A stretch of DNA of 64,000 nucleotides from Novakomyces olei (Eukaryota): assembly GCA_016906335.1 (NCBI GenBank), contig JADEYG010000002.1:248001-312000 (forward strand). The letters are read 5' to 3'. The position numbers were made by a program, and so were the translations under genes. The stretch's first letter is position 1; every line of letters starts with the position of its first letter. The notes below the pieces were generated by a model that did not search any database, was not told the origin of the DNA, and saw only the letters and a list, made by a program, of their open reading frames with translations. Shown here piece after piece: positions 14,899 through 46,501 of this stretch.

Positions 14899-17800
14899 CT
14901 AAATTTTCTTTTCCAAAATGTCCAATAGATGAACGACAATGGGAATCTGTCGCACGTTCACATCACGAACATCTTCGGCAATTAGCCTTTCATATTCTTG
15001 TTCAAGATTTCGTTTGGCGAGTTGCGCCACTTCTGGAACAAGAGCTCGTACCTGCTCATTATTGACTGGATCAATACGCGACGCAAGTCTGCGAAGCCAT
15101 TGCACTTTTTCCGTAGTGCTTTTACTCAAGTCCAGTACCATACGATAAAGACAGCCGACAAGAGCAATTTGCCCGACATCAGATAAAATTTCGTCGCTAG
15201 TGCCGTGAGCAGCCAATTGGGGGAACAAGTCTACGTCTTCTTGTGAACAATACTGCAATTGTTAGCATTGTAAAGGAAATTAAAGAAAAGGATAAAATGA
15301 AAATGAATTTAATAATAAAAATAGCTTTAATATTTGCTGACGCGTAATGCTCTACCTTTATTACGGCCTTCTCATACTCATGAGCCGCAAGCAGACGCTC
15401 AATATCATTCTTAGGGGAGACTTGCTCAGCTTCCGGCGGTACTTGCGCTCGTACTTCTCGCTTGTTTTCCCCATTAACACCGTCCGGTCCATGTTTCTTA
15501 ATTAATTCTATAATTGTATAAAGCAGAGTAGTTATTTGAGCCAAGTCTGCCTGAAGCTTGGCAAATTCAGGCTTTAGTTTGGCGCTGACTGCATTAGCAA
15601 TATTGACTTCCGGAAAAACAGAGCCAAACGCGGACTTTAACGCCTTACTGTCAAGAGCATCCGCTACACCATTGCGCACATGTTCAGCAACAGCAGTCGA
15701 CAAAACATCCGTTGTGTTCCCTGCCAATTTCTCAGACACAGTTCGCCAGACTGCCAATTCTCGCTGTTCGTTGCTCTCTTGAAAAGAATTGAGGGCAGCA
15801 ACGAACTCTTCTCTTTGCCTCTGTAGCAATTTGCGCATTTGCCGGGTCAGTACTATACCATCAAACCCAGCAGACTCTCTGGAATCGTCACCAGGGTTTT
15901 CTCCAGCACTAGCCTGCTGCTTTTCCGGGTCAGATTGCACATTGCTCTCAAGCAGCAGTCCAGGTTTTCGCACTCTATCGACTTTTCTTTGTGATTCTTT
16001 CTTTTGCAGCTGATCTTTTGCAGCTCGTGTCTGGCCCAGTTTAGAAGGGGTGGCATTAATGCCGGCAGCATTCGCGTTGTTACTGCTAGCTTCATCGGCC
16101 AGCGTCTTTGGCTCGTCACCAGAACTGACAGCTGTGTAACCATCAAAGGAAACAGAGGTGCGTATGAGGTAGTCGTCCAGCACAAACGACCGGCTTGTAC
16201 TGTCTGTTTCTAAAGACTCGGCCGACTCTAAACCGGACTTTGTAACGGAAAGAATACTGTAACCTTTTGGCAGAGACATGTACAAATCAACTGCATCTGA
16301 TGACGCATCTAGCGGTGGACCTGCCGTAACATTGACCAGATCTTTACCTTCTCTTAGCTTTGCACAATACGCCGTCAAGACATCGGATCCTAGTTTAGGA
16401 TTATTGTCACCGTCAAATTTACCGTCGGCTAATTCCTTACTTTTACCATTTTCAAGACCCGTTTGCTGCTGCCCAATATCAACAAGCACGAGGAACGGTG
16501 AGCCAACCATGGCAATTACCATAAATCGTTCAGAATCAAAACCAACAACCATTTCACTCGATGCAGACGACGATTTGAAAACATAGGCAGCCTCTCTCTT
16601 GAGCAGATTCACAATAGCAAGTTCAGTACGATCCTTGTTCAATAGAGCCGCGTACTTTGGTAGACCGTTTGGTCCACTAAGAAACATGAAAAAATTGTAT
16701 GGTTTCAGCTTGTTTATACGCAAATGCCACTCTTTAACAAATAGCTTTGAATCCCAAAAAATGACTCTTCTCCCTGTACAAGTCACAAACTTGCTACCGT
16801 CTGCTGAAGCATTTAAATAATTAATTGCCCTGCCCAGCCGGGAAGTCTTTGCATTCAATTGTGCCAAAGCTGATGAAGCAGCTTCCTCATCTTCCAACTT
16901 GACGTACACCAAATGATCCGGGATTTGAGCCATGTATATGTCTTGACCCACACTAAACAAGAAATGGCCATCGGAATTTGGTATCCAGGCAATGTGAGGA
17001 CAGGTTTCGAGGTATCCCGTATCCTTGATAATCTCCACTAAAACCGTACACGATTTACAGTCCCAAACAACGATATTGCTCATACTGTCGATTGACAAAA
17101 GCAGGGAGTTATCATTGATGGCCAAATCAATTACTTTGTTACTCCCTCTAATCTCCAAGGCACTCGCTTTGCCTGTGTGCTGGTCAACCAGCTGAATAGT
17201 TCCGCCTTTTGAGGAAGCGTATACTATAAATTCCTGCGAAGCAACAATCAAGTTTCGGTGAGTGGCTTCCACCATCTTTGATAGCCGCGCCACGTCGTGA
17301 GTGTGAGGTGGGAGAATATGAGGCTTAAACTGGTCCACCATACTGGACAAGTCTGTTTCCTGGCCAGGACGAAGCTTGAAAGAATGGTAAAAGCGGCGAG
17401 ACGTGGGTTCTGGCTTAGCTGCCGAGTCTTTGATTTCTATATCAACCGCGGGGATATTCGCTTCTGTATCTGCCTCAAAATCAGATTCAGATTTATCCTC
17501 AGTCTCGCTGCTCTTTGCCGCCTGCGCTGCTGCTTCTGGTTTGGAGAGAATACCTTTTGGAAACTTGTTACCAGCAAATAGTATGCCCTCTGCTGGAGCT
17601 TCTTCTGTTGTCTGAGAAGAGTCATTAGACTGAGCAGCGGATGGGGCAAAAGCTTTGTCCATTTTCGTCGCATTTGGCTCTGGGGATTCAGCTTCCTGCT
17701 GCTTAAGCCTGTTGGTTGACAAAGATTCAGTGTCTGTGTCCCCGCTTTTTAAACCAGTTGGCTGCACTGCCGGAGAATTTGCTGATTTGGTAAACTCTGC

Positions 17801-18700
17801 GAGCTGATCAAAAGGACTCTTCGCTGTAAATAGAGACTTTACACTTTTCTCAGAATCAGGTTCGACTCGAGACCCGTTTGCACTCTTGTTCAAACCTGTA
17901 GCAGCAGCAGCAGCTTCAGCTTCCGGTTTAGACTCGACATTAGGTTTAGAAATGCTTCCAGCATTCAAAAGGTCCCTCAAAGCTTCAGTACCTGCTGCGG
18001 CAGAAACACTGCCCTTATCAGCCTGTGAAGGCAGATCTCCAGGACTCTGCTTGGGAAAAAGATCAGCTAAACTTGCTGTGCTCCCCGCACTAACAGGAAC
18101 TGGTGCGGCTATAGGGTCTGCGTGTTTGCTTTCTTGCTCTGCCTCTGTCGAAGAACGCGGGCTTCTGAAGAGACTTTCGACTTTCACTTTTTCGTCTGCA
18201 GTAGTAACATCTTGCTGCCCTTTCCCAAGCGCTGGAGACGGAGATCCACTCGCACTAGTACTAGCCTCCTTGCTAGTGCTCGGCGGCCTCGGGCCCAGCA
18301 GCTGAGCCATCAGACTCTGTGCATGAGCCGCCCCCGGTGAAACAAAATGCCGCTGAGTTCCAACTGCGGAGGGAGAAGAAATCGGGCCGGCGGACGGAGA
18401 TTGAACCGGTAAATTTCCCGTCTGCGTCGGTGCAGGAGCAGTGCCAATTGACTGAGAATCAAGAAAGGCACTCAACAGATCATTCCTATGCGATGTTCCT
18501 CCGTTAGCAGGAGAAGCAGCCACTGCCGGAGCGTTTCTTGCATTGGCAGAAACGGGGCCGTTCAGGTAAGAAGAAGGTGAAGCAATTGCGCTGGCTGGCC
18601 TTTCGTCACCAAAAGACTTGTCAGATTCAGTGGCGGACGGTTGGACTGGCGACGAGGATTTGCGCAGCAAATCCAAGAGGCCGCTTAGATCTTTGCTCAT
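14899..18700 (-). CDS. Pdc1/EDC4-like mRNA decapping scaffold
   Basis: Low-complexity N-terminus with short leucine-rich motifs, a central WD40-like region (VIDLAIND...IVVWD, VIFWD) and a helical/coiled C-terminus. Intron 15253-15355. Family assignment is from architecture only. Confidence 0.6.
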
Positions 18701-19384
18701 TGAATTTCTTCCGCAAGGATCGAGGACTGGTAACTAATTTTCAAAGGACAGAGCTCAAGTAAGCCAGTCGCCGCTTCACAGGAGGGTTAACTCGTCAGTA
18801 AGGAACTGTCAGCATACGCTCTCAAAGCTTCGAGGTACACTCGGACTTTGGATAGATGTGTCGTAATAGTTGTGTATTATATAATAGACAGAATAATTAA
18901 ATAAAAGTATGATTAAATAGGATAATGATTAAATAAGACAGTTTCAAAGTTTATATATTGAACTAAAAAATACAGTATTGTATAAAGCAATATTGGAAAA
19001 AGTAAAACCGAAAAAAGCAAAACTTTTAGAAACCAGTATTATAGGGTTTTTTATATGCACTGTCGTTGCAGTCAACTAAATATTATTAGCGCAGTATCCA
19101 ATTCGACTGAATAGTTTTAGATGCTGTTTTAAGTGTAAAACTTTTAATAAAAGGGGTTGCCCCCGTCATAAAATCTATACTAAAATTGCGATTAATAAAA
19201 CAAGTGTGAAACCCATACGTAAAAATATTGTGGTGACAGCGCAGCAAAATACTGACAAAGCCAGAATTTTGACTCTTGCTCGACATTTCAAAGCACGGGT
19301 CTAATGTAGCTCGCTTTACTCTATTGTTTCGATTATTTAAGGCCTTTAAATAATCGCATAAACCAACATATCCGCAAACTGTAC

Positions 19385-20296
19385 ATGATCGAAACGACCA
19401 CGACGTCGGCCACAAGTGCTCGTAAACGTCGACGATTAAGTCTGAACGAGACGAAAACTGACGAAAATGGCGTCATTGACGCCCTGAGATTGGACAAACT
19501 TCCATACGAAATATTGGAATCAATTCTTTGCTTCTCTGGCAACTCGGAGCTCGTGGTAACTAGTCGCAAGTTTTGGAGATATTTTCACTGTGCCAACTAC
19601 GCGCATCTCCCCTACCGTTGCTTGGCAAAATTGCAGTTTGTCAATAATGCAGAGCCTGAGGCGCAGTCTATGCCCGTCCTTAAGGCTTTAAGGCGGAGAT
19701 TTTGTACACCGGCTTTTCTGCAAAGACTCTGCTCCAGCCCGAAGCGGCATCTGCCTGTTGCACGAATTGTGCGGGAGAGCACTTGGCTCAAGAGGTACGG
19801 TCTCCCACATTCGAGGACCAATCGTTTATCCGCTCGCTGTGCGTACTCTCAAACTCGATTGGATGAGGACATTTGTTTTATATTTCAGTACTGCCAGTCA
19901 ATCCTAAGACTAAAAACTTGGGTTAAGAATGAACCGGCAATAATTGTACGCGACGCACCTCACCTCAGTACAACTTTGGTTCAGAGACGCAGGTTTCGGA
20001 CTTTTGAACAATTGTTCTGCTTTGGCAACAATACTTGTACTGCTGGAAACCCTGCACTCGTAGACGGAAAGCACTTTGCAGCTCGTGCAATAAATGACTG
20101 TGTGAATAGAGGCGATGCTCAAGGCATTGTTTTCTGTCTCGAGTTTTTGGCTCGTCAGTACAAGAGCACTATCGACCGAGCGTTCGGGGACTCTTTACTG
20201 CGTCAAGCGGCTGAAGGTAAACAGTCAGAGGTGGTGAAGGCACTTATGAGGTTTGGGTGTGTACCGTCAATGAAGACGCTGCAGCTGTTGCGGTGA
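19385..20296 (+). CDS. Hypothetical protein with F-box-like N-terminal motif and ankyrin-like C-terminus
   Basis: 303 aa ORF with LDKLPYEILESIL (F-box-like), RKRRRL (NLS-like) and LRQAAEGKQSEVVKALMRFG (ankyrin-like). Confidence 0.6.
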   Translation: MIETTTTSATSARKRRRLSLNETKTDENGVIDALRLDKLPYEILESILCFSGNSELVVTSRKFWRYFHCANYAHLPYRCLAKLQFVNNAEPEAQSMPVLKALRRRFCTPAFLQRLCSSPKRHLPVARIVRESTWLKRYGLPHSRTNRLSARCAYSQTRLDEDICFIFQYCQSILRLKTWVKNEPAIIVRDAPHLSTTLVQRRRFRTFEQLFCFGNNTCTAGNPALVDGKHFAARAINDCVNRGDAQGIVFCLEFLARQYKSTIDRAFGDSLLRQAAEGKQSEVVKALMRFGCVPSMKTLQLLR

Positions 20297-32137: not shown

Positions 32138-32293
32138 TTTATTATCATTAATTATATTTATTTTTACTTTTATTGTTATTATTATTATTATTAATTATTA
32201 TTATTATTTTTATTATTATTATTTTTATTATTATTATTTTTATTATTATTATTTTATTTATTTATTATTATTATTTTTTGTTGTATATTTTTA
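32138..32293. repeat. Nearly pure A/T low-complexity (TTA/TTTTTA) tract
   Basis: Directly visible upstream of the helicase gene. Confidence 0.9.
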
Positions 32294-32332
32294 TTGTTTT
32301 CAAGTTTTAATTTTAATTATTCATGTCAATAT

Positions 32333-33595
32333 ATGAAACGTTCGCTGGGCAACGGGCTGAGTCTGGACCATAGCGCATGGTCGTTGCCGCCAGAACTCGT
32401 TGCCGCCATTTGCGGCACTGGCGTCCGCCAGTTTTATCCTTGGCAGGCGCAATGCTTAAAAATTGCAAAAGAAGCGGTACCAAGTTCGACGTGTACATCA
32501 ACGAGCGTAGCCAGCACTGGCAATTTGGTGTACACCGCGCCAACGTCGGGCGGAAAATCATTGGTGGCCGATGTCCTTGTGCTTCAGCATTTACTACAAA
32601 ACCCTAATAGAAAGGCAATTTACGTTATGCCCTACGTGTCGCTGGCCAACGAAAAAGCGCGTACACTTCGCGAACTGGCACGCGTGCTGCCACGGCAACC
32701 GCCCATTGTTGTGGCAGCGCATTATGGCGGCGCTCTGTTTACTCCGTCCTGGACGAATACTGCGATTGCCGTGTGCACTATTGAAAAGGCAAACACGCTG
32801 CTGAATACTTTAATTGCCGAGGGCAGTGCCGACAGCGTTGCTTACTTGGTAGTGGACGAACTGCACTTTGTAGCGGATCCGAACCGCGGCTTCCTGCTCG
32901 AATGTTTGCTGGCCAAGGCAATGGTCTTGACTAGTATTGGTACAAGTACTAGTATTGGTACTAGTGTTGGTACTAGAGCTAATCATAGTGCTAGTAATAG
33001 TGCTAGTAATAGTGCTAGTAATAGTGCTAGTAATAGTGCTAGTAATAGTGCTAGTAATAGTGCTAGTAATAGTGCTAGTAATAGTGTCCAGAGTGCTGGC
33101 ACAAACTCTGGCCCTACTATAATTGGCATGACGGCCACTGTGAACCGGTCATCTCTGCGGCAGATAGCTGATTGGCTACAAGCGCGCCTTTATATTAGTG
33201 ACGTAAGACCAGTTCCTCTGTTTCAGTTTATTGTGTGTAACAGCGTGGTCGAGTCACTTGACGCGCCCGCTGCGCGTCGGCAATTGCCATTGCCGCCGGT
33301 AGTTGAGCAGAAGAAACTGCCTTGGCCCGCTGACTGGCCCGCCGACTGGCCGCCTGTTTGCTTGGCTCTAGAAGCATCGGGGAAAGGTGATGCCTGTATC
33401 GTATTTGCTCCGACACGTAAAGCAGCTGAGCGATTGGCTCATACTATCGCTATGTTCTCTGCGAAAACTGGTCAGGGTGAGCTTGCAGTGCAACAGTTAC
33501 GGATAGAATGTTTTAATCAGCAGCAAAACTTGGAGAGCTCTGTGCGTGCGGGTGTTGCTTTTCATCACGCCGGTTTATCATTAGAAGAGTACGAT

Positions 33596-33650
<55 letters not shown>

Positions 33651-35390
33651 TTCTGTTTTTGTTAATCTAAATTGCAGGCGAAATGTATTAGAGCTCGCCT
33701 TTGACCAATCATGGCTCAAGGTACTGGTTGCTACACCAACTCTAGCAGTCGGCGTCAATTTACCAGCACGTCGAGTCATTTTCAGCCGCGAATTCATCAG
33801 CAATTCAATGATCGACACGGCACGTTATCGGCAAATGGCAGGGCGAGCTGGTCGGAAAGGCAGAGATGTAAAGGGAGAAAGCTTCATGTGCTGTGGCGAA
33901 AACAATTACGCTCAATTGAAAATGGTAATGGCAGCCGAGTGTCCGGCTGTGGGGAGTGTGATGCCGTCTCATACTGATTCTGTAGAGTGGAAGAGGTGTG
34001 TATTATGTTATCTATATATAAGGTTTACAATTTTCACAACTTTTACAATTTATAATTCCTCTTGTGCTAACCGCAGATTGCTTCTTGAAGCAGTAGCAAT
34101 AAATTTGCCCCCTGATCTGGTGTGCCGGCACACTCTGTATGCACACTCCAACGGGTAAGGTAAAGTCGTGAGTTTAAAATTTAATTAAATTAGGGACCAA
34201 ACCTTGTACGGAATACTGCAGAAAGGCTTAACGGCTCTCTGTGGAGCTGGCCTGCTTGAAACCCGGGACGGATACAATATTACACTTCTCGGCAAAGCGG
34301 TCGTAAAATCTGGGCTCAGCCAGGAAGAAGGCTGTTTTATTTACGACGAGATTTCGCGTAGTATTCGGCAATTCAATCTTGCTGATGATTTGGTAAGAAT
34401 TGCATTTGATTCTTTTGCTGATCACCGATTGAAGCACTTTTTGTATCATGTTACTCCTGTGTATGTTGTAGTGTCAATCAGCTGGAAACAGCTTATGAGT
34501 CAATTCGTCAGCCTCTCTGAGTCGGAGCAGATGACGGCTGTTTCCCTGGGGATTAATCCGGGGCACCTGGCTCAATGCACATTGGCAAAGGCGAGGATAG
34601 ATGTATGATAATATATCATGTTGTGGAACATAAGAACAAAATAGTTTGAATATTTTTAATTTTTGCTTTATTTCATTTGAAACGCTTTTCATAACTCTAA
34701 CATTAGCCCACGCGGATCTATCAACGATTCTACGTAGCTCTCATTTTACGAGCCTTGGTTGGAGGCGTGAATGCTCAGCAAATTTGTGCTGATTTCGAGA
34801 TAGAGCCAGGCCAATTGCAAGCCATACAGACACAAACGACCTCGTTCGCGGCAACAATAGTAAACTTTTCCCAGCAGTTACAATGGAAAGCGTTTGCTGT
34901 GGTAATTGAAAGCTTCAAGGAGCAAGTTTGTTTTGGTACGTAGTACGCATAATGCGCACATTAATTATCTATTTCCTTTTGAAATAGAAGGTTTTTTTCT
35001 GGGTTTTGGAGCCTTGCTGTGTTTCAAAATTTTTCAATCCACTCTTTTCATTATTTTTGAATTTGCATTGTCATCAATCACATTTGATAAATTTATATGA
35101 TGCTGACATGAAAAGGCGTGCGAGCGGAGCTGCTGAGTATAACTAAAATGTTCAATTTAAAAGGTGCAGAAGCTTCCGCGCTTTGGGAAAACGGTGTACG
35201 TAGTGCGGATGATGTAGTGGATGTGCCAGCGAGTAAAATTCGTGATATTTTGCTGTGCCTTTACCCTTCCAAAAGCCTCAATGAAAAGGAATTAAGTCTG
35301 AGAGCGCTAATTGCTGATAAAAAGACACAAAAACTGCGCCGAATTGCTCAAAGGTATAGGGAGGAACAGGAACTATTTCAGGACGAATAA
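32333..35390 (+). CDS. HELQ/Pol-theta-type Ski2-like DNA helicase (no polymerase domain)
   Basis: FYPWQAQCL, APTSGGKSLVA, VCTIEKAN, VVDELH, RGFLLE, GMTAT, GVAFHHAGL, TLAVGVNLPARRVI, QMAGRAGRKG, ITLLGKA, HFLYHVTP. About six introns. Confidence 0.88.
32987..33082 (+). repeat. Coding 12-bp minisatellite (AGTGCTAGTAAT) x8 encoding (SASN)8
   Basis: Perfect in-frame tandem copies between helicase motifs II and III. Confidence 0.95.
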
Positions 35391-36319: not shown

Positions 36320-37481
36320 CTACCGACTCTGCCATACGTGTACATACTCGTCCCATCCCACAGTAGCAATCCAGCTACCGTCGCCCCACAAACTCCAATC
36401 AAGGCCGGCGACAAATTCTGTATGCTTATCAAAAACACTGCGGGTCGTAGCCTGCAGTGTATTTGGTGAGGTCGGCAGTTGCCATACTCTGGCAGTCATA
36501 TCATAGCCTCCAGAGGCAATTATATCAGATTTATGATTGTTTGCTCGCACACAGCGCACTGCAAACTTGTGGCCATCACATTCAGCATGAGGCCTCTGTA
36601 ATTTTCGCAAATCCCACACCATTACCCGTGTATCAACACCCCCGCTGGCTACAAAATGCTCCCCGTACTTGAGCCAATCACAGCACAAGACCTCTTCGCC
36701 ATGATTCGCAGCGACAGCGGCAATCGCCGCTGTCGGTGTTCTCGTATCCCACACACGTAAAGATCCATCAGCCGAGGCGGTACATAATAAATTGGGATTG
36801 TGTGGAGACCATTCGGCTCCGTAAACACAGGCACTGCTTACAGGAATACGGAGGAGCCGGTGCTGTGCGTCAGGTTGTAGTATACACACTGACCCATCCC
36901 AAGACGCAGTGGCAATTGTAGTTTTGTCGACTAAATTGCTCGCAACCGAGAATACTTCCTTTTGGTGTTCGCGCCAGTTTTTAAGTGGGAATTTCTATAC
37001 TTAGTCTTGCAAAGGAGAACAAACTAAACCAAGAATATTTTGAACAAACGTTTGTAATGGAAATATTATTGAAATTTAAAAATCTCGGTCCGAGTCACAA
37101 TCACTTACGGGCCGAGCGGTATCAAACAGTTTGACGGTGCCGTCTCCACAGCCTACAAATACATGGTTCTCGTGGCTTTCGCTCCATGCGAGATCAAACT
37201 GGCCGTCCTGCGTATCGAACCTGAAACGAATTAGAGCGACTATGGAACACAGTAATGTCATATCAATTTTGACGACAAGGCAAAGAAAACAAAGGAAACG
37301 TTGCAATGACATACTCTATTTCGCGTTGTATTGTGCCTCGGTTCGTCAGAGTGAGAACGTGTAAACGGCCGTTTCCAACGAGTCCAAAATTTGCCGACGA
37401 CGCGACCGCTAACCGATTATCGTAAAACGGCGAAAATTTGACTGCGTAGCCATGAAAGCCCGCCGTTCGGTACGACAGCAT
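36320..37481 (-). CDS. PEX7: PTS2 peroxisomal import receptor Pex7
   Basis: MLSYRTAGFHGYAVKFSPFYDNRLAVASSANFGLVGNGRL, FDTQDG.FDLAWSE, WD repeats, HTEFVAGLDWS. Confidence 0.95.
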
Positions 37482-37733
37482 GTGTGGGGCATTAGTTGGG
37501 GACGCGGGCTATGATGTAGTAGGATTTTATTGTATGATATACCAATATATTTATGCTATTTATCATTTAATTTAATTGGTTTATTTAGTGATACAGAGGA
37601 ATAATAAGAATAATAATAATTATTATTATCATTTAATTTAATTTAATTTAATTAGTTTATTTAGTGGTACAGAGGAATAATAATAATAATACACTCGCAA
37701 CTTCTATACAATGCGCTAGGATATCCAATTCAA

Positions 37734-38861: not shown

Positions 38862-39431
38862 TCACGTATCGTACTTTTACCGGCGCGCTGTATATATATA
38901 TTTATATATTTATATATTTATATTTACAACTATATATATTTACATTTTTATAATATATATAGATATTTTTATTTTATTATATTATTAATAATTAATATTC
39001 TCATTATACTTAATCACTAAGGATTTAGCCTATGCTCCGCAAGTGTAAAGTAACTATTTCAGACTGGTATAAGACGCAGTGCTGAGACAATATATGAGCA
39101 GGGTAAATTACTTGGTCACACATTCAATCTAACACAGTCAGGTGCTATAGTCAAGTAAAGGTGGAGCGCGCGATAAGGAAGCTGAAATAGGAAATAAAAC
39201 AAATAAAAAGACGAGAACTAAAAAGATAAAAGGGGGTAAAAAAAAAAAAAAGACCACGGCAGATCCCCAGGTAAACTGAAAAATTTAAAACTTACCAGTC
39301 CGTTGCCCGACCAGACTTACAGCACAAGCAAGCGGCGCATAGGGCAACCTAGGCTCTCTTCCAAGATCAATTGGGAGCAGTGATTTTCCCAGGAACAAGA
39401 ACTCAAGTTACTATCTCGCAACTCTGTCAGA

Positions 39432-40004
39432 ATGGGCAGGCCGCTTCCCACTTCGAGCGAGTTCCATGATCAAATGCTTTTGCGCAAAACCAAATATCTG
39501 CTTAAGCAAGTACTGGCAAGAGTAGAAGGCACAAGCATTGCCTCTGCAGAAGAGTTACCGAATAGGCGAGGCTGCACTTGCTATGCTATACACCCTGCTG
39601 AATGTTCGTGTCGTTTGAGCTACGAAACGTTTGTGGAAGCATTGGACCCAGAATCCAAAATCACAACTCGGGTCTTTGAAGCTCTTGTACGTGAGGCGTG
39701 TGGCCGGCATACTCGTCGCTACCAGAAATCTAGCCGTAGCAATACACACAGAAGCCAGGAGAATGAGGGCAATCAGGGCGAAACGGCCTCGAGCTACCTC
39801 TCTCGCCTTCGTCGGTCACGAGCCATTCAGGAGCCGGTTCCGGCAGAGATTATTCCTGGTATTGTGGAATCAATAACGCTTGACTCTCCGCAAAGCGCTT
39901 ATTTTCATGCTGCTGCTGATGACAATGTGGCGGAAGAGCAAAGTATGGAAGACACAAACGGGTATCATGAGTCGCATGCAGACGAAGGTATTATTCACAT
40001 GTGA
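39432..40004 (+). CDS. Hypothetical protein (upstream exons possible)
   Basis: 190 aa ATG ORF of coding-like composition with a CxC-x7-CxC cluster. Intron-like signals at 39103-39137 suggest further 5' exons. Confidence 0.55.
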   Translation: MGRPLPTSSEFHDQMLLRKTKYLLKQVLARVEGTSIASAEELPNRRGCTCYAIHPAECSCRLSYETFVEALDPESKITTRVFEALVREACGRHTRRYQKSSRSNTHRSQENEGNQGETASSYLSRLRRSRAIQEPVPAEIIPGIVESITLDSPQSAYFHAAADDNVAEEQSMEDTNGYHESHADEGIIHM

Positions 40005-40582
40005 AATAATTATTATATATATATTGTACAGTGCTTTTGAGCGCAATTTCGGTTTTTATACAGGTTTATGGCATCACTTTGGAGGCGTTTACTTTCTCGT
40101 AGAGTCCGGCGAGAGGAGATTGTGCAAACGGTGGAACAGGAGATGCAACGGGGCCAGTGCAAGGTGGGGCGATTCGAATCAAAAGTTTTTAAATTGCTGT
40201 TTGTATAATACATTATATATATTTGTTCAAGTTTATAATAGTGACTACTTCCATTGTTTTGTGTCTATGCGATGACCATTGATTCTCGTAACTTATGTAT
40301 TCTGTATGCGGCCTATATATGTCTGGAGACTCAAAGTTTTCGTGCAGCGTACAGTGTTATGGCCGTTCGTATTTACGGGGCTGATTCCTATGTAGTCATG
40401 CACGGCCGTGTCAATTCATATAAAAAGTATACTCGAATTACATTATATTTTAATAAATTATATTCTAATAAATTATATTTTAAAATATTATTTTAAATTA
40501 CGCATTGTTGTATGATCGACCTTGAAATATCTCTCACCTACATATATATTCGTCATCTAATATATGGACAGCTGAGCTCTTG

Positions 40583-43448
40583 ATGTGGTCAGTCCTCCAG
40601 TCGGCGCTGCCATTGGCGTCGGCGTTACGGCCATCAACGAGTGTGGCAATCAAAAACCTGCCGTTTTATTCGTCAAGACTCGGTCAGTTGTCTCCGATAC
40701 GTGCCCGCTTCTTTTCGCAGCAGCAATATTGGAGATTAGGGAGTTTGCAATTCAATTGTTTTAATCAGTCTATGAAGCAGCAGCAGCAGCAGCAGCAGCA
40801 GACTTTCAGTTCTGCTTCATTTAGTCGGACACTGCCCACGGCAGTAACGATCTGTCGCGGCAGCAGCAGAATACAAACGAGACTGACGGAAAAAAAGAGG
40901 CAAAACAGCCCTTTAGTATGGAAATCAACACGCAGATCCTATTCGTCGAGCAGCCCGCAACCAGGCACGTCTGCTCGATATATATGGCTGCGCCGTGCAA
41001 GACGGGCCTTAACAGTCCTCATTCTGCTCTTTCTGGGCTATGCATTGTACGCAAAAGTGTTCCAGATTCTTTCTATTCCGCTGTCTCTGTACGCCAGTTT
41101 ATTGCTGCAGATAATAAAAGCTTCACGGGTGGAGTCCAACACTGTCTTGCACCTTCCGATCAACCAGTTGAGCATCCAGGACGCGCCTATTGGAGTGGAC
41201 AATGAAGGGTTTGGCCAATTAGAACACATTGTCGATGGTCGAGAGAGGGTTGCACTGTTTGATTTGGTGACGAAAATCAGGTACGCTGGCCAGGATGATC
41301 GGGTGAAGAGCATTGTTCTTGATTTGAGTCCGTCACCAGCCACTGAAAATGCCGGAGGTGGACTTGGCTGGGCTGGAGCGGAAGAGATCCGATCGGCTCT
41401 TTTCGATTTTGCACGGCTGAAGCGTACAAAATTCGGAGAAAATCATGTGGCTATTACTGCTTACTCTGCTAATATAGATAATCAAAAAATGTACTATTTG
41501 TCGCAGGCCGCAGACCGTGTCCTCATGTCGCCGTCCGGTCTGTTTTTCCTGGCTGGATTATCGGCCTCTGGCCTGTTTTACCGAGATTTACTTGATTATG
41601 TTGGGGTAAAGATGTACGTCGAGGCCCGTGAAGACTGGAAGTCTGCTGTTGCACCCTACACAATGACCGGGTGGAATGACGCTACAAGGCAAAATTTAAA
41701 GGCATTGCTTGATGACTTACAGGGCCAGGTGGCACAGGGCGTTAAAGACTTTAGTAAAGCTGGCCGGCCGTACAATGAGATTGTAGCTGATTCGCCTTTC
41801 CAGGCAAGAGACGCTGTTGCTTTATCTGTCGTGGACGCGACAACCTATCTGCGAAAGCTATTTAGCGAGTACGTGGACGCGGGAGATCATTTACTAGCCT
41901 GGAGCAAATATTCACGTGCGCTTGAGCTTTCACGGCAATTTGTTGTTAAATCCACTGCCTCTGTACAGAATAATGAAGAAACTGCAAAGGACGGAAAAAC
42001 GGAGGCTAAAGAAACTGTAAACTTGGAACAGCTTCAAGAGAGTCTGCAGCAAATGGGGGGAGACAAGTCTTCCGCCAAAGACGGTGAAGACGTTCCGAGT
42101 CCGATGGAGGATCAGTCTATAGTCATGTGGATCGGAGACGATACCGATGCGCCCAAACCAGATGCTCGTGTTGGTGTTGTCTTTTGCGATTCGGCAATCG
42201 GAAACTCGGGGCGATTTGCAGCAGAAAAAGTTGCAAAGCAACTTTACCGCGCTGCTCGTGACGAGTCTATTAGTGTGATCTTGTTTCGCATGAACTCTCC
42301 TGGTGGCGATGCAGTTGCGAGCGATACGATTCGAAGTGCCGTTGAAGAAGCAAAGAAGCGGAAACCTATAGTCGCTAGCTATGGAGACGTTTCTGCGTCT
42401 GGGGTATGATTGGCTATTATTTAATACACCAAACTTGTATTTAAATTTTTTATTTCCAATTTCTGTTTTAATTTTTATTTTAATTCTAATTTATTTTTAC
42501 TGTTATTTTCAAATTTGTTTTAATTCCTTTTATTTTTTCTATTCTACGCTACTTGTCCCTGATCAACGATTAATATTTTAGGGCTATTTGGCCACGTGTA
42601 ATGCTTCGCGTATATTTGCAAACGCTACAACCGTCACCGGCAGTATTGGAGTCTTTGGAGTAAGACCGCAGGCGACTGAGGCTATAACAAAAGCCAAGAT
42701 AGCCAGCGATACAATCCGAACTGCAGACAATGCTACATTTTTCAACGTCTTTGAACGGATGACAGACGCGGATCGTTTGCAATTTCGAAACATTGTTTCT
42801 GAAACGTATAGTGAATTTAAACGCAAAGTCAGTGAGGGCCGTGGACTCGATAGTGAAGCAGTACAATCCGTGGCTGGAGGCAGGATTTTCTCCGGACAGA
42901 GAGCCAGTGCTAATGGGTTGGTGGACGATGTTGGAGGGTTCCATGATGCCGTTCGTTATTGTGTCTCTTTAGCTTTGGCTGGAAAGGCAAATTCCGCAGG
43001 AGACCAATTGCCGCTCACTGCAGAGGATATTTTGGAGCCTGGACGTGCGTCAGAAAACGGGGATCTTTTAGGCAAAGATTTGATAAAGGGTGATTTCCAA
43101 ATTGTCAAGCCCTCGAGTCATCGAGTCTCGTATACGCTCAAGACTCCCGAGGGCAAGACTGTTGATTTAGTATTGTTTCCTCGGCCGGATCGTCTTCCTA
43201 CGTTGATTCATGCAATCAATATACTGCGTGAAGGCGAAGAAGAGGAACGCGATGCAATTTCTAGCAGTGAGGATGGTAGTGATGGCAGTGGAGCTTCGCT
43301 TTTACGGAGATTTTCAGTTTACGCAGGTCCATTACTGTCGGCGCTTTTGCCTTATATCAAAGAAGCTTCTAATGATACAAAGGGCCAGAATGCGTCACTG
43401 GAGGGGATGTTGAGAATGGAAATGCCGCCAGTCAAGATATCTTCATAA
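40583..43448 (+). CDS. sppA: SppA (protease IV, peptidase S49) tandem-domain protease with organellar-type presequence
   Basis: DDRVKSIVLDL, YYLSQAADRV, WKSAVAPY, MNSPGGDAVAS, ASYGDVSASG|GY, TVTGSIGVFG, YSEFKRKVSEGRG, AGGRIFSGQRA..NGLVD. Intron 42404-42581. Confidence 0.9.
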
Positions 43449-45793: not shown

Positions 45794-46384
45794 TCATGGC
45801 CGACGCTGCTGAATGTTACGTTTCAAAAACAAAGCACCCGGCCTCGGTCTCTTTGCTCGTGGCCGTCCACGTTTCTTTACGGCCTTTTGAGCCCACAATT
45901 TTTCCAATTGTATTCTTGCACGCCGTTCGTAAAACGCAGTAGAAGATTTCCGTGGATGAAATGTAAGCAGTTTCGTCCGGACCGTACTGCCGCTCTCCAG
46001 ACTCGTACGCGCCCTGAGCGTTACTATTCTGGAACCGGTTTGTTTACGCGTGCTGCCCCCACGACCACGACGCGACTCGGAGCGCTTGGCGACACGAGAT
46101 CCTTCGGCTGACTGCCGTTTCAAACTTTTCCGGCGGTTCGCATTACGCGACGGCTCAAGCTGGCCAACGCGTAACGCAGTGGGTCGGCGCCGGCCTTTGC
46201 TGGTTGCATGTATAATATCGTCAGCGATTTCCTTCTCATCAGAATCGCGGTACTCTGCACTAAGCGACGACAGGATATTAGCAAAGCGCGCTAGCAGCTT
46301 CGTATCTGCACCCAATTGCCCAGTGAGAGCATAATACGCACGGTTAAAATCACGCTGAACCGTGTCGGTCATCCAACCATCCAT
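45794..46384 (-). CDS. Hypothetical highly basic protein with AT-hook-like KKRGRPR
   Basis: About 196-codon ATG ORF, GC-richer than its flanks. Helical N-half and Arg/Lys-rich C-half. Start is uncertain. Confidence 0.55.
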   Translation of the reverse strand: MDGWMTDTVQRDFNRAYYALTGQLGADTKLLARFANILSSLSAEYRDSDEKEIADDIIHATSKGRRRPTALRVGQLEPSRNANRRKSLKRQSAEGSRVAKRSESRRGRGGSTRKQTGSRIVTLRARTSLESGSTVRTKLLTFHPRKSSTAFYERRARIQLEKLWAQKAVKKRGRPRAKRPRPGALFLKRNIQQRRP

Positions 46385-46501
46385 CCATGTGAGACTAAGA
46401 TAGTTTAAGGGACGATTATCTAATTGTCTCAACGATCGCGCGTTGTTTGCCGTCGCAATTGCGTCGGGTTTGTAGTGTTAAAGGTTAGACTGCAATTAGA
46501 G

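Follow-up and report, generated by a model that had tools for sequence, protein, structure and literature searches.

Gene structure and genomic context

The DNA analyzed here, called the window, is a stretch of 64,000 nucleotides from Novakomyces olei (contig JADEYG010000002.1, positions 248,001 to 312,000 of the forward strand). We describe a two-exon gene of this window that encodes a tandem S49 peptidase of the SppA type, hereafter called SppA (Table 1). Once spliced, its frame runs through 895 amino acids (aa) uninterrupted by a stop codon; if the intron is retained, it terminates two codons past the donor. Near the splice site, three in-frame joins of donor and acceptor can be drawn and a single one, that of the 178-nt intron, regains the SASGGY motif. 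The intron has a GC content of 20%, against 49% for exon 1 and 47% for exon 2, and contains branch-like sites at -23 and -12. The relative P0002 reads SASGGYLAT uninterrupted, with no break where the window gene has its intron. Another relative, P0171, breaks at the intron position, and its read-through tail corresponds to exon 2 begun one base earlier, with 10 of 27 residues matching, a score equalled in 3 of 100,000 shuffles. From these sequence comparisons, both the splice and the start site appear supported by homology; no upstream in-frame ATG that would lengthen the gene was found. A possible 62-nt intron of the 5' untranslated region can be noted at 40510-40571 (+), with a GTATGA donor like that of the main intron, CTAAT and CAG; its splicing would take out two short upstream ATGs. 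This pattern is not above chance, since it has 2 matches and 34 of 100 shuffles reach 2.

A preliminary description of the locus had placed an intron inside the serine motif and had considered the gene eukaryotic and not a contamination. Both statements agree with the present data: the join restores the motif, P0171 breaks at the same place, the flanking genes are fungal housekeeping genes, and the GC content at third codon positions (GC3) is 0.46, within the 0.41-0.58 range of the neighbours. It is the only S49 gene that we found in the 14.34-Mb genome.

Table 1. Positions in the window of the features of the SppA gene and its product.
Feature	Positions	Strand	Remarks
Exon 1	40583..42403	+	aa 1-607; start ATG at 40583
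Intron, phase-0 GT-AG	42404..42581	+	178 nt, GTATGA...TTTTAG, 20% GC
Exon 2	42582..43448	+	aa 608-895 plus stop
Basic Ser/Arg/Gln-rich N-terminal extension	40583..41005	+	aa 1-141; candidate presequence and a short tail predicted to stay in the matrix
Second in-frame ATG	40772	+	Met64
(CAG)8 poly-Q	40778..40801	+	aa 66-73
Membrane helix (predicted)	41006..41062	+	aa 142-160, directly after basic cluster RRARR; proline-free
Second hydrophobic stretch, weaker and more amphipathic	41060..41116	+	aa 160-178, Pro166
N-terminal S49 domain	41141..41917	+	aa 187-445 approximately, matched by Pfam over aa 290-428; contains the 9-aa insertion of fungal SppA
Lys353 (WKSA), general base	41639..41641	+	counterpart of the YKSA lysine in 3bez (E. 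coli SppA)
Inter-domain insertion, acidic, low confidence	41960..42154	+	about aa 460-524
C-terminal S49 domain, split by the intron	42167..42956	+	aa 529-732
Ser606 (SASG|GY), nucleophile	42398..42400	+	aligned with the ASGGY serine of 3bez
Ser628 (TGSIG), second conserved serine	42642..42644	+	lies in GSIG
C-terminal extension	42957..43448	+	aa 733-895; mostly low confidence in the P0002 model

Protease domains and catalytic residues

As the preliminary description had claimed, the protein contains two S49 domains, both of which score above the Pfam cut-off (PF01343; 59.9 and 105.5 bits for a cut-off of 24.9). The best NCBIfam model is SppA_67K (TIGR00705); with the exons scored apart, it yields 120.1 + 94.6 = 214.7 bits, below its cut-off of 311.45. 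An AlphaFold2 model covering the exon 1 product only (aa 1-607) reached a mean predicted local distance difference test score (pLDDT) of 73 and a predicted template modelling score of 0.64, and its first match in Foldseek was E. coli SppA (3bez/3bf0; E 5.7e-20), in keeping with the ClpP/crotonase-type fold of this family.

The lysine motif WKSA and the serine motif SASG|GY are both present and correctly placed. Lys353, Ser606 and Ser628 fall on the catalytic residues in the alignment to E. coli SppA (3bez), without misalignment, and the catalytic residues also align with those of 3rst. Ser628 presumably orients the lysine. In a 69-row alignment, the Lys353 column holds lysine in 45 of 45 fungal-clade rows, and the Ser606 and Ser628 columns each hold serine in 44 of 45, the exception being the truncated P0001 for the former and a truncated protein for the latter; the three columns are invariant in the outgroup (24 of 24 rows each). 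Domain 1 lacks a serine at the nucleophile site and domain 2 a lysine at the base site, which is the split of tandem SppA. The SGGY and GSIG serines stand in motifs such as those of the S49 listing in the supplement of PMC5567314. Judging from these sequence features, the gene product is very probably an active Ser-Lys peptidase.

The linker between the two domains is long, with 84 aa in the window protein and 94 in P0002; it spans 15-51 aa in the other fungi, and the named bacteria have linkers of 10-15 aa. The C-terminal extension gave nothing clear in the ESM Atlas. Its tail is kept between the window protein (EMPPVKISS) and P0002 (EMPEIKINS), and a regular expression matched it in 13 of 50 clade members, 121 of 253 proteins outside and 1 of 120 controls; this pattern, written after the tails had been viewed, is a lead only. 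By analogy with B. subtilis SppA, and again as a lead only, the conserved tail may bind the active site.

N-terminal extension and membrane segment

The preliminary description had pointed to a basic and nearly acid-free N-terminus of about 140 residues including a CAG-encoded poly-Q, followed by a transmembrane segment. Our counts bear this out. Residues 1-140 include 16 Arg, 5 Lys, 25 Ser and 18 Gln with no Asp and one Glu (net charge +20), the first acidic residue being at position 103. At the acid frequency of 11 window open reading frames (ORFs), 11.9%, the probability of at most one acid in 140 residues is about 4e-7; the longest acid-free runs in these ORFs are of 21-76 aa. The eight CAG codons have no counterpart in the aligned part of the relative P0167, which has a comparable extension (aa 52-151, with 2 acids and 9 Arg). 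Two motifs resembling R-3 processing sites occur at R42 (RFFS) and R118 (RSYS). The extension is mostly below a pLDDT of 50 in the model.

The segment 142-160 is the most hydrophobic 19-mer of the protein, with a mean Kyte-Doolittle (KD) value of 2.06. Two points go beyond the preliminary description, namely the weakly cationic first 30 residues, considered below, and the hydrophobic stretch 160-178 (KD 1.74), common to P0001 and P0167. In the model, aa 130-180 form one confident continuous helix. In the other fungal members, a single segment is present and charged residues come after it.

We compared the region ahead of the membrane segment in 35 usable rows of the fungal clade described below, 15 of the 50 being left out as truncated or unaligned, with 192 rows outside. 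At least 40 residues precede the segment in 19 of 35 clade rows versus 9 of 192 outside, and the net charge of this part is at least +5 in 18 of 35 versus 11 of 192. The segment itself is less hydrophobic in the clade (median KD 1.32 versus 2.87). These traits stand out more clearly over the whole clade than in single proteins. We infer that a long basic extension combined with a milder segment is what would be expected of imported inner-membrane proteins. Arg-rich, presequence-like starts are found in P0162, P0195 and P0219, which are members from three phyla.

A fungal clade of SppA proteins

Word-index protein searches returned two close proteins and then mostly bacteria, and they missed the named fungal family. 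A transfer from Bacteroidota, suggested by these searches alone, was unsupported by the full HMMER search and by the trees, and a Bacteroidota donor was rejected by the approximately unbiased (AU) test (p 0.033). The eukaryotic family surfaced in the full HMMER search, which gave 7046 matches, of which the best 150 were listed. The S49 phylogeny that the preliminary description called for was computed from 303 rows, namely the 299 of 313 matches in which both domains occur, to which the window protein and three partial relatives were added. FastTree places the window protein inside a 50-member clade with a support of 0.999, and a maximum likelihood tree of 69 rows gives the fungal SppA clade a Shimodaira-Hasegawa-like approximate likelihood ratio (SH-aLRT) support of 100. 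At least two relatives share the clade of this ascomycete-lineage gene, and identity to the close relatives is 54-55%. The window protein does group with fungal SppA, though in the best trees not beside the basidiomycetes.

Twenty-six clade proteins were looked up and led to 21 named clusters, all fungal: 9 from chytrids or monoblepharids, 2 from blastoclads, 4 from zoopagomycetes, 2 from Mucoromycota and 4 from basidiomycetes. There is no ascomycete among these 21; an ascomycete S49 could sit below the best 150 of the 7046 matches, or in a cluster without a name. The clade is also marked by the length of one segment. The stretch corresponding to aa 268-304 reaches 35 aa or more, a criterion defined within this analysis, in 45 of 49 rows of the clade; outside, where 28 aa is usual, 3 of 250 rows do so. 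With 37 aa, the window protein carries the 9-aa insertion common to fungal SppA.

The clade belongs to a larger group that adds two red algal proteins, three further proteins and four bacteria adjoining these. Red algal and other tandem SppA proteins adjoin the fungal clade with an SH-aLRT of 99.3 (P0229, P0275, P0027, P0241 and P0214, the last of which looks bacterial); they may be mitochondrial rather than plastid copies. In two public gene models, S49 is joined to other domains: P0173 (Sorochytrium, 1614 aa) has a C-terminal half that we read as nuclease-like, and P0439 (Tieghemiomyces, 1057 aa) carries the name uridylate kinase. Both are probably merged neighbouring genes.

A scan for P0002-like loci gave 131 pattern matches, none of them a relative, and an ESM Atlas search with aa 130-607 gave bacterial S49 clusters only. 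To look for a bacterial donor of the eukaryotic group, we scanned with four proteins from the bacterial subfamily closest to it; by title, the best 80 of 588 loci were mostly Acidobacteria, Actinomycetes and Nannocystales and included no alphaproteobacterium, a result biased by the query.

Host placement and protease context in the genome

The best named matches of the window Nop2 come from five Schizosaccharomyces species (78-79%, 647-662 bits; the next named match has 606 bits). In a tree of 29 of the 120 listed matches, Nop2 and one further sequence join Schizosaccharomyces with an ultrafast bootstrap of 100, and then Pneumocystis. On this single-gene evidence, the host is a Taphrinomycotina ascomycete that stands beside the fission yeasts.

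Searches of the genome, whose results are lower bounds, matched an S26/IMP-like gene, ClpP, two M48 genes, a Cym1/PreP-type gene, M41 AAA proteases and the complex I 51-kDa subunit. The loci L004 and L007 (G000:C2 and C3) document that ClpP and the 51-kDa subunit are kept in this genome. Schizosaccharomyces is not known to have complex I. The four Schizosaccharomyces rows in the table of PMC5567314 have no ClpP. Since ClpP is present here, SppA is not replacing it and could instead cover peptide clearance in the intermembrane space (IMS). One M3 peptidase gene was found (L003, G000:C4:595080-599321); given its presequence and a score of only about 107 bits against neurolysin, we read it as Oct1. 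A Prd1/thimet-type oligopeptidase of the IMS was not found among these matches.

Possible function and origin

We propose that the gene encodes a fungal tandem S49 protease kept by descent in a Taphrinomycotina lineage adjoining the fission yeasts. From its sequence, it is likely that the basic N-terminus directs the protein to mitochondria for import, and that the matrix processing peptidase trims this N-terminus. Helix 142-160 would then stop transfer in the inner membrane, with a short basic tail staying in the matrix. Given a mitochondrial location, we would fairly confidently expect the protease domains to face the IMS, which would be the same orientation as that of bacterial SppA in the periplasm. 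There, probably as a catalytic ring like the E. coli tetramer, it would cut short hydrophobic peptides that have come out of the membrane, without using ATP. Location and role taken together, we lean slightly towards an inner-membrane, IMS-facing, ATP-independent Ser-Lys peptidase that would clear hydrophobic peptides. Chances seem even that its substrate class comprises sorting signals released by IMP together with fragments made by Oma1 and the AAA proteases. A bolder and rather doubtful hypothesis is that SppA destroys in the IMS the sorting signals cut by IMP, a homologue of signal peptidase I, which would amount to a complete bacterial pathway of signal-peptide disposal. In this lineage, SppA would take over what Prd1/neurolysin does in budding yeast and animals. 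SppA would then have belonged to mitochondria from the time of the early eukaryotes onwards, reached the ancestor of the ascomycetes and disappeared several times after that, and these losses would explain why it escaped studies of model yeasts.

Several observations weigh against the reading of an IMS-facing peptidase kept by descent, some on role and location and others on origin. Fission yeasts live without S49, so that the job must be dispensable or covered by others, and Prd1 may have been missed, as the genome searches give lower bounds. The first 30 residues have a net charge of +2, compared with +6, +3 and +7 at the presequence starts of three proteins of the same genome that we read as Oct1-like, complex I 51-kDa and Oma1-like. 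The window protein also fails a crude presequence rule, which shows a modest separation (18 of 47 clade members, 24 of 244 proteins outside and 12 of 113 Nop2 controls pass it). In PMC5567314, 29% of fungal S49 proteins are TargetP-mitochondrial and the family is marked 'not mitochondrial', WoLF PSORT ranking mito and cyto top; many public models seem to begin at an internal Met (P0315 versus P0170), which may explain the TargetP figure. The weakly cationic first 30 residues, the TargetP figure and a helix more hydrophobic than in most of the clade would suit a protein located elsewhere, whose helix would be a signal anchor for the endoplasmic reticulum or vacuole, or for the outer membrane, and whose basic N-terminus would be a disordered cytosolic tail. 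We hold this to be quite unlikely, in view of the near absence of acids and the net charge of the first 140 residues, the two R-3-like motifs, the lack of a visible N-terminal signal peptide (the best early 19-mer has a KD of 0.84), the presequence-like starts in three phyla and the mitochondrial precedent in Acanthamoeba (PMC7050145). A further difficulty is that the second hydrophobic stretch could form a hairpin and invert the topology. With such a hairpin at 142-178, or with full import, the enzyme would face the matrix and take part in ATP-independent quality control or presequence degradation, a role like that of ClpP. The two consecutive hydrophobic 19-mers speak for this arrangement, as do the 18 of 18 Ustilaginomycotina without ClpP (S14), 14 of which have S49, in sheet 1d of PMC5567314 (four Tilletia rows have neither). 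On the other hand, the model contains a continuous helix and no hairpin, the second of the two stretches is the more polar and amphipathic one, other fungal members have a single segment, and this genome possesses ClpP and a Cym1/PreP-type gene; a matrix-facing enzyme thus seems unlikely to us.

As regards origin, descent predicts a place beside the basidiomycetes, which is not seen in the best trees. With or without outgroups, the window clade comes out as the sister group of the remaining fungi, on a long stem (0.6; 0.98 without outgroups), and an AU quick test rejects the basidiomycete grouping (p 0.006). After fuller searches with 37 rows, the basidiomycete place is no longer rejected (p 0.108, and p 0.131 under LG+C10+F+G4). 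Pairwise identity does not separate the two groups, lying at 28-35% for other fungi and at 27-35% for bacteria. The outlying position also fits a history, independent of where the protein resides, in which ascomycetes lost SppA early and this lineage regained it by an old horizontal transfer whose donor was an early-branching fungus or, independently, a bacterium. The lack of an ascomycete among the 21 named clusters and the bacterial-like letters kept at some sites (KSAVAP, GSIGVFG) point the same way, and a bacterial sister position is not rejected in two LG+F+G4 tests (p 0.088 and 0.114). However, the one test of three that rejects this position, under LG+C10+F+G4 (p 0.040), does not reject the basidiomycete one, the insertion ties the window SppA to fungi, the Bacteroidota donor fails, no fungal donor group attracts the window SppA, and its GC3 is native. 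The fungal grouping together with the common insertion makes a recent bacterial transfer unlikely, and we regard an old transfer as improbable. SppA is in our opinion probably an old fungal gene, fast-evolving and retained on a long branch. The preliminary description had left the choice between an ancestral relic and an old horizontal transfer; the trees and the insertion favor an old fungal gene. A decaying or inactive gene, or a bacterial contaminant, to which the long branch, the large insertions and the poly-Q might lead one to think, is hardly credible with 895 stop-free codons after splicing, all three catalytic positions retained, 54-55% identity to relatives, a spliceosomal intron at a shared position and fungal neighbours.

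Published record and significance

Fungal S49 proteins were catalogued in 2017 (34 sequences, from 31 of 627 proteomes), with a function given as 'unknown in fungi' (PMC5567314). In line with the preliminary description, according to which model yeasts lack SppA, this catalogue counts no S49 in any of its 10 Taphrinomycotina rows, and none in fission yeasts. It gives one S49 for Moesziomyces antarcticus, a saprotrophic yeast. Among the ascomycete rows examined, Beauveria D1-5 has 3 S49 and a second strain 0; D1-5 also has other families that the second strain lacks, and we thus read these as contamination. A paper on gene loss in fission yeasts (PMC13617670) mentions neither S49 nor SppA. Mitochondrial SppA is on record: PMC7050145 predicts one in Andalucia godoyi and knows of one other case, Acanthamoeba castellanii, by mass spectrometry. 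Bacterial SppA is described as a tetrameric, N-terminally anchored Ser-Lys enzyme of the periplasm that degrades released signal peptides (PMC9360617), and a thylakoid-bound SppA is tied to high-light acclimation (PMC9860172). We found no functional study of a fungal or mitochondrial SppA in the literature within reach, most subscription papers being outside it. This agrees with the earlier view of a little-studied enzyme.

The mitochondrial protease lists go back to yeast, plant and animal systems. A review published in 2025 (PMC12344103) reports that IMP strips hydrophobic sorting signals off IMS-directed proteins and that Prd1 is an IMS oligopeptidase, and it mentions SppA 0 times. If the disposal pathway outlined above were true, SppA would belong among the mitochondrial proteases without having been recognised as one of them. 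What is new here is the occurrence in an ascomycete, beside Schizosaccharomyces; the family in fungi and the mitochondrial location have precedent (PMC5567314, PMC7050145), so that the novelty is smaller than suggested earlier. Well-characterized orthologues throughout the ascomycetes did not come to light. The window gene extends the known range of SppA into ascomycetes, in a lineage adjoining Schizosaccharomyces, and, if inherited, it implies that SppA was lost several times among them. It also offers a near-native gene for S. pombe, which has no S49, with which one could ask what becomes of the hydrophobic pieces that are cleaved off in the inner membrane. Altogether, this is an extension of range with a testable function and not a new kind of system.

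Other genes of the window

Some other loci may deserve mention. An intron-containing WD40 gene lies at 36320-37508 (-), and we take it to resemble the peroxisomal receptor Pex7. A DEAD/DEAH helicase gene, presumably Hel308/POLQ-like, occupies 32195-34158 (+); its helicase domain contains an NSAS tandem repeat, and its introns have TATT repeats. The gene at 15197-18733 (-) encodes an EDC4-like Pdc1 beta-propeller protein, which is by its Pfam name a decapping scaffold of the fission-yeast type. Three ORFs have no Pfam match, at 39384-40004 (+, 206 aa), 19310-20296 (+, 328 aa) and 45794-46477 (-, 227 aa).

Comparison with known SppA proteins

Close counterparts are fungal S49 proteins such as those of Spizellomyces (KND00550), Calcarisporiella, Actinomortierella, Coemansia, Malassezia (KOS15057) and Mixia (GAA97769), which belong to the same clade and have the insertion. 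They share with the window protein the basic extension, the membrane segment and the tandem S49 domains; the window protein differs by its ascomycete host, its identity of only 28-35%, the additional hydrophobic stretch that follows its anchor and the greater length of its acidic linker. The mitochondrial SppA proteins of Acanthamoeba and Andalucia are likewise nucleus-encoded and of bacterial type, a likeness drawn from their description in PMC7050145 and not from trees; that of Andalucia has 639 aa and a short N-terminal hydrophobic segment, without a long presequence (PMC7050145 supplement). The chloroplast SppA of Arabidopsis (At1g73990), also compared by description, is another organellar S49 protease on an internal membrane and is thylakoid-bound.

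Among bacterial enzymes, E. coli SppA (protease IV, tandem 67K type; 3bez, 3bf0) resembles the window protein in its N-terminal anchor and in its two S49 domains with the lysine in the first and the serine in the second. It is unlike it in that the window protein has a 141-aa basic extension, the 9-aa insertion, the 84-aa linker, a C-terminal extension of about 160 aa and an intron, and the two have 20-22% structural identity. Each S49 domain of the window protein matches B. subtilis SppA (3rst, 4kwb), whose single domain carries both the serine and the lysine that the window protein splits over two; according to the title of entry 4kwb, the C-termini of B. subtilis SppA are bound in its active sites.

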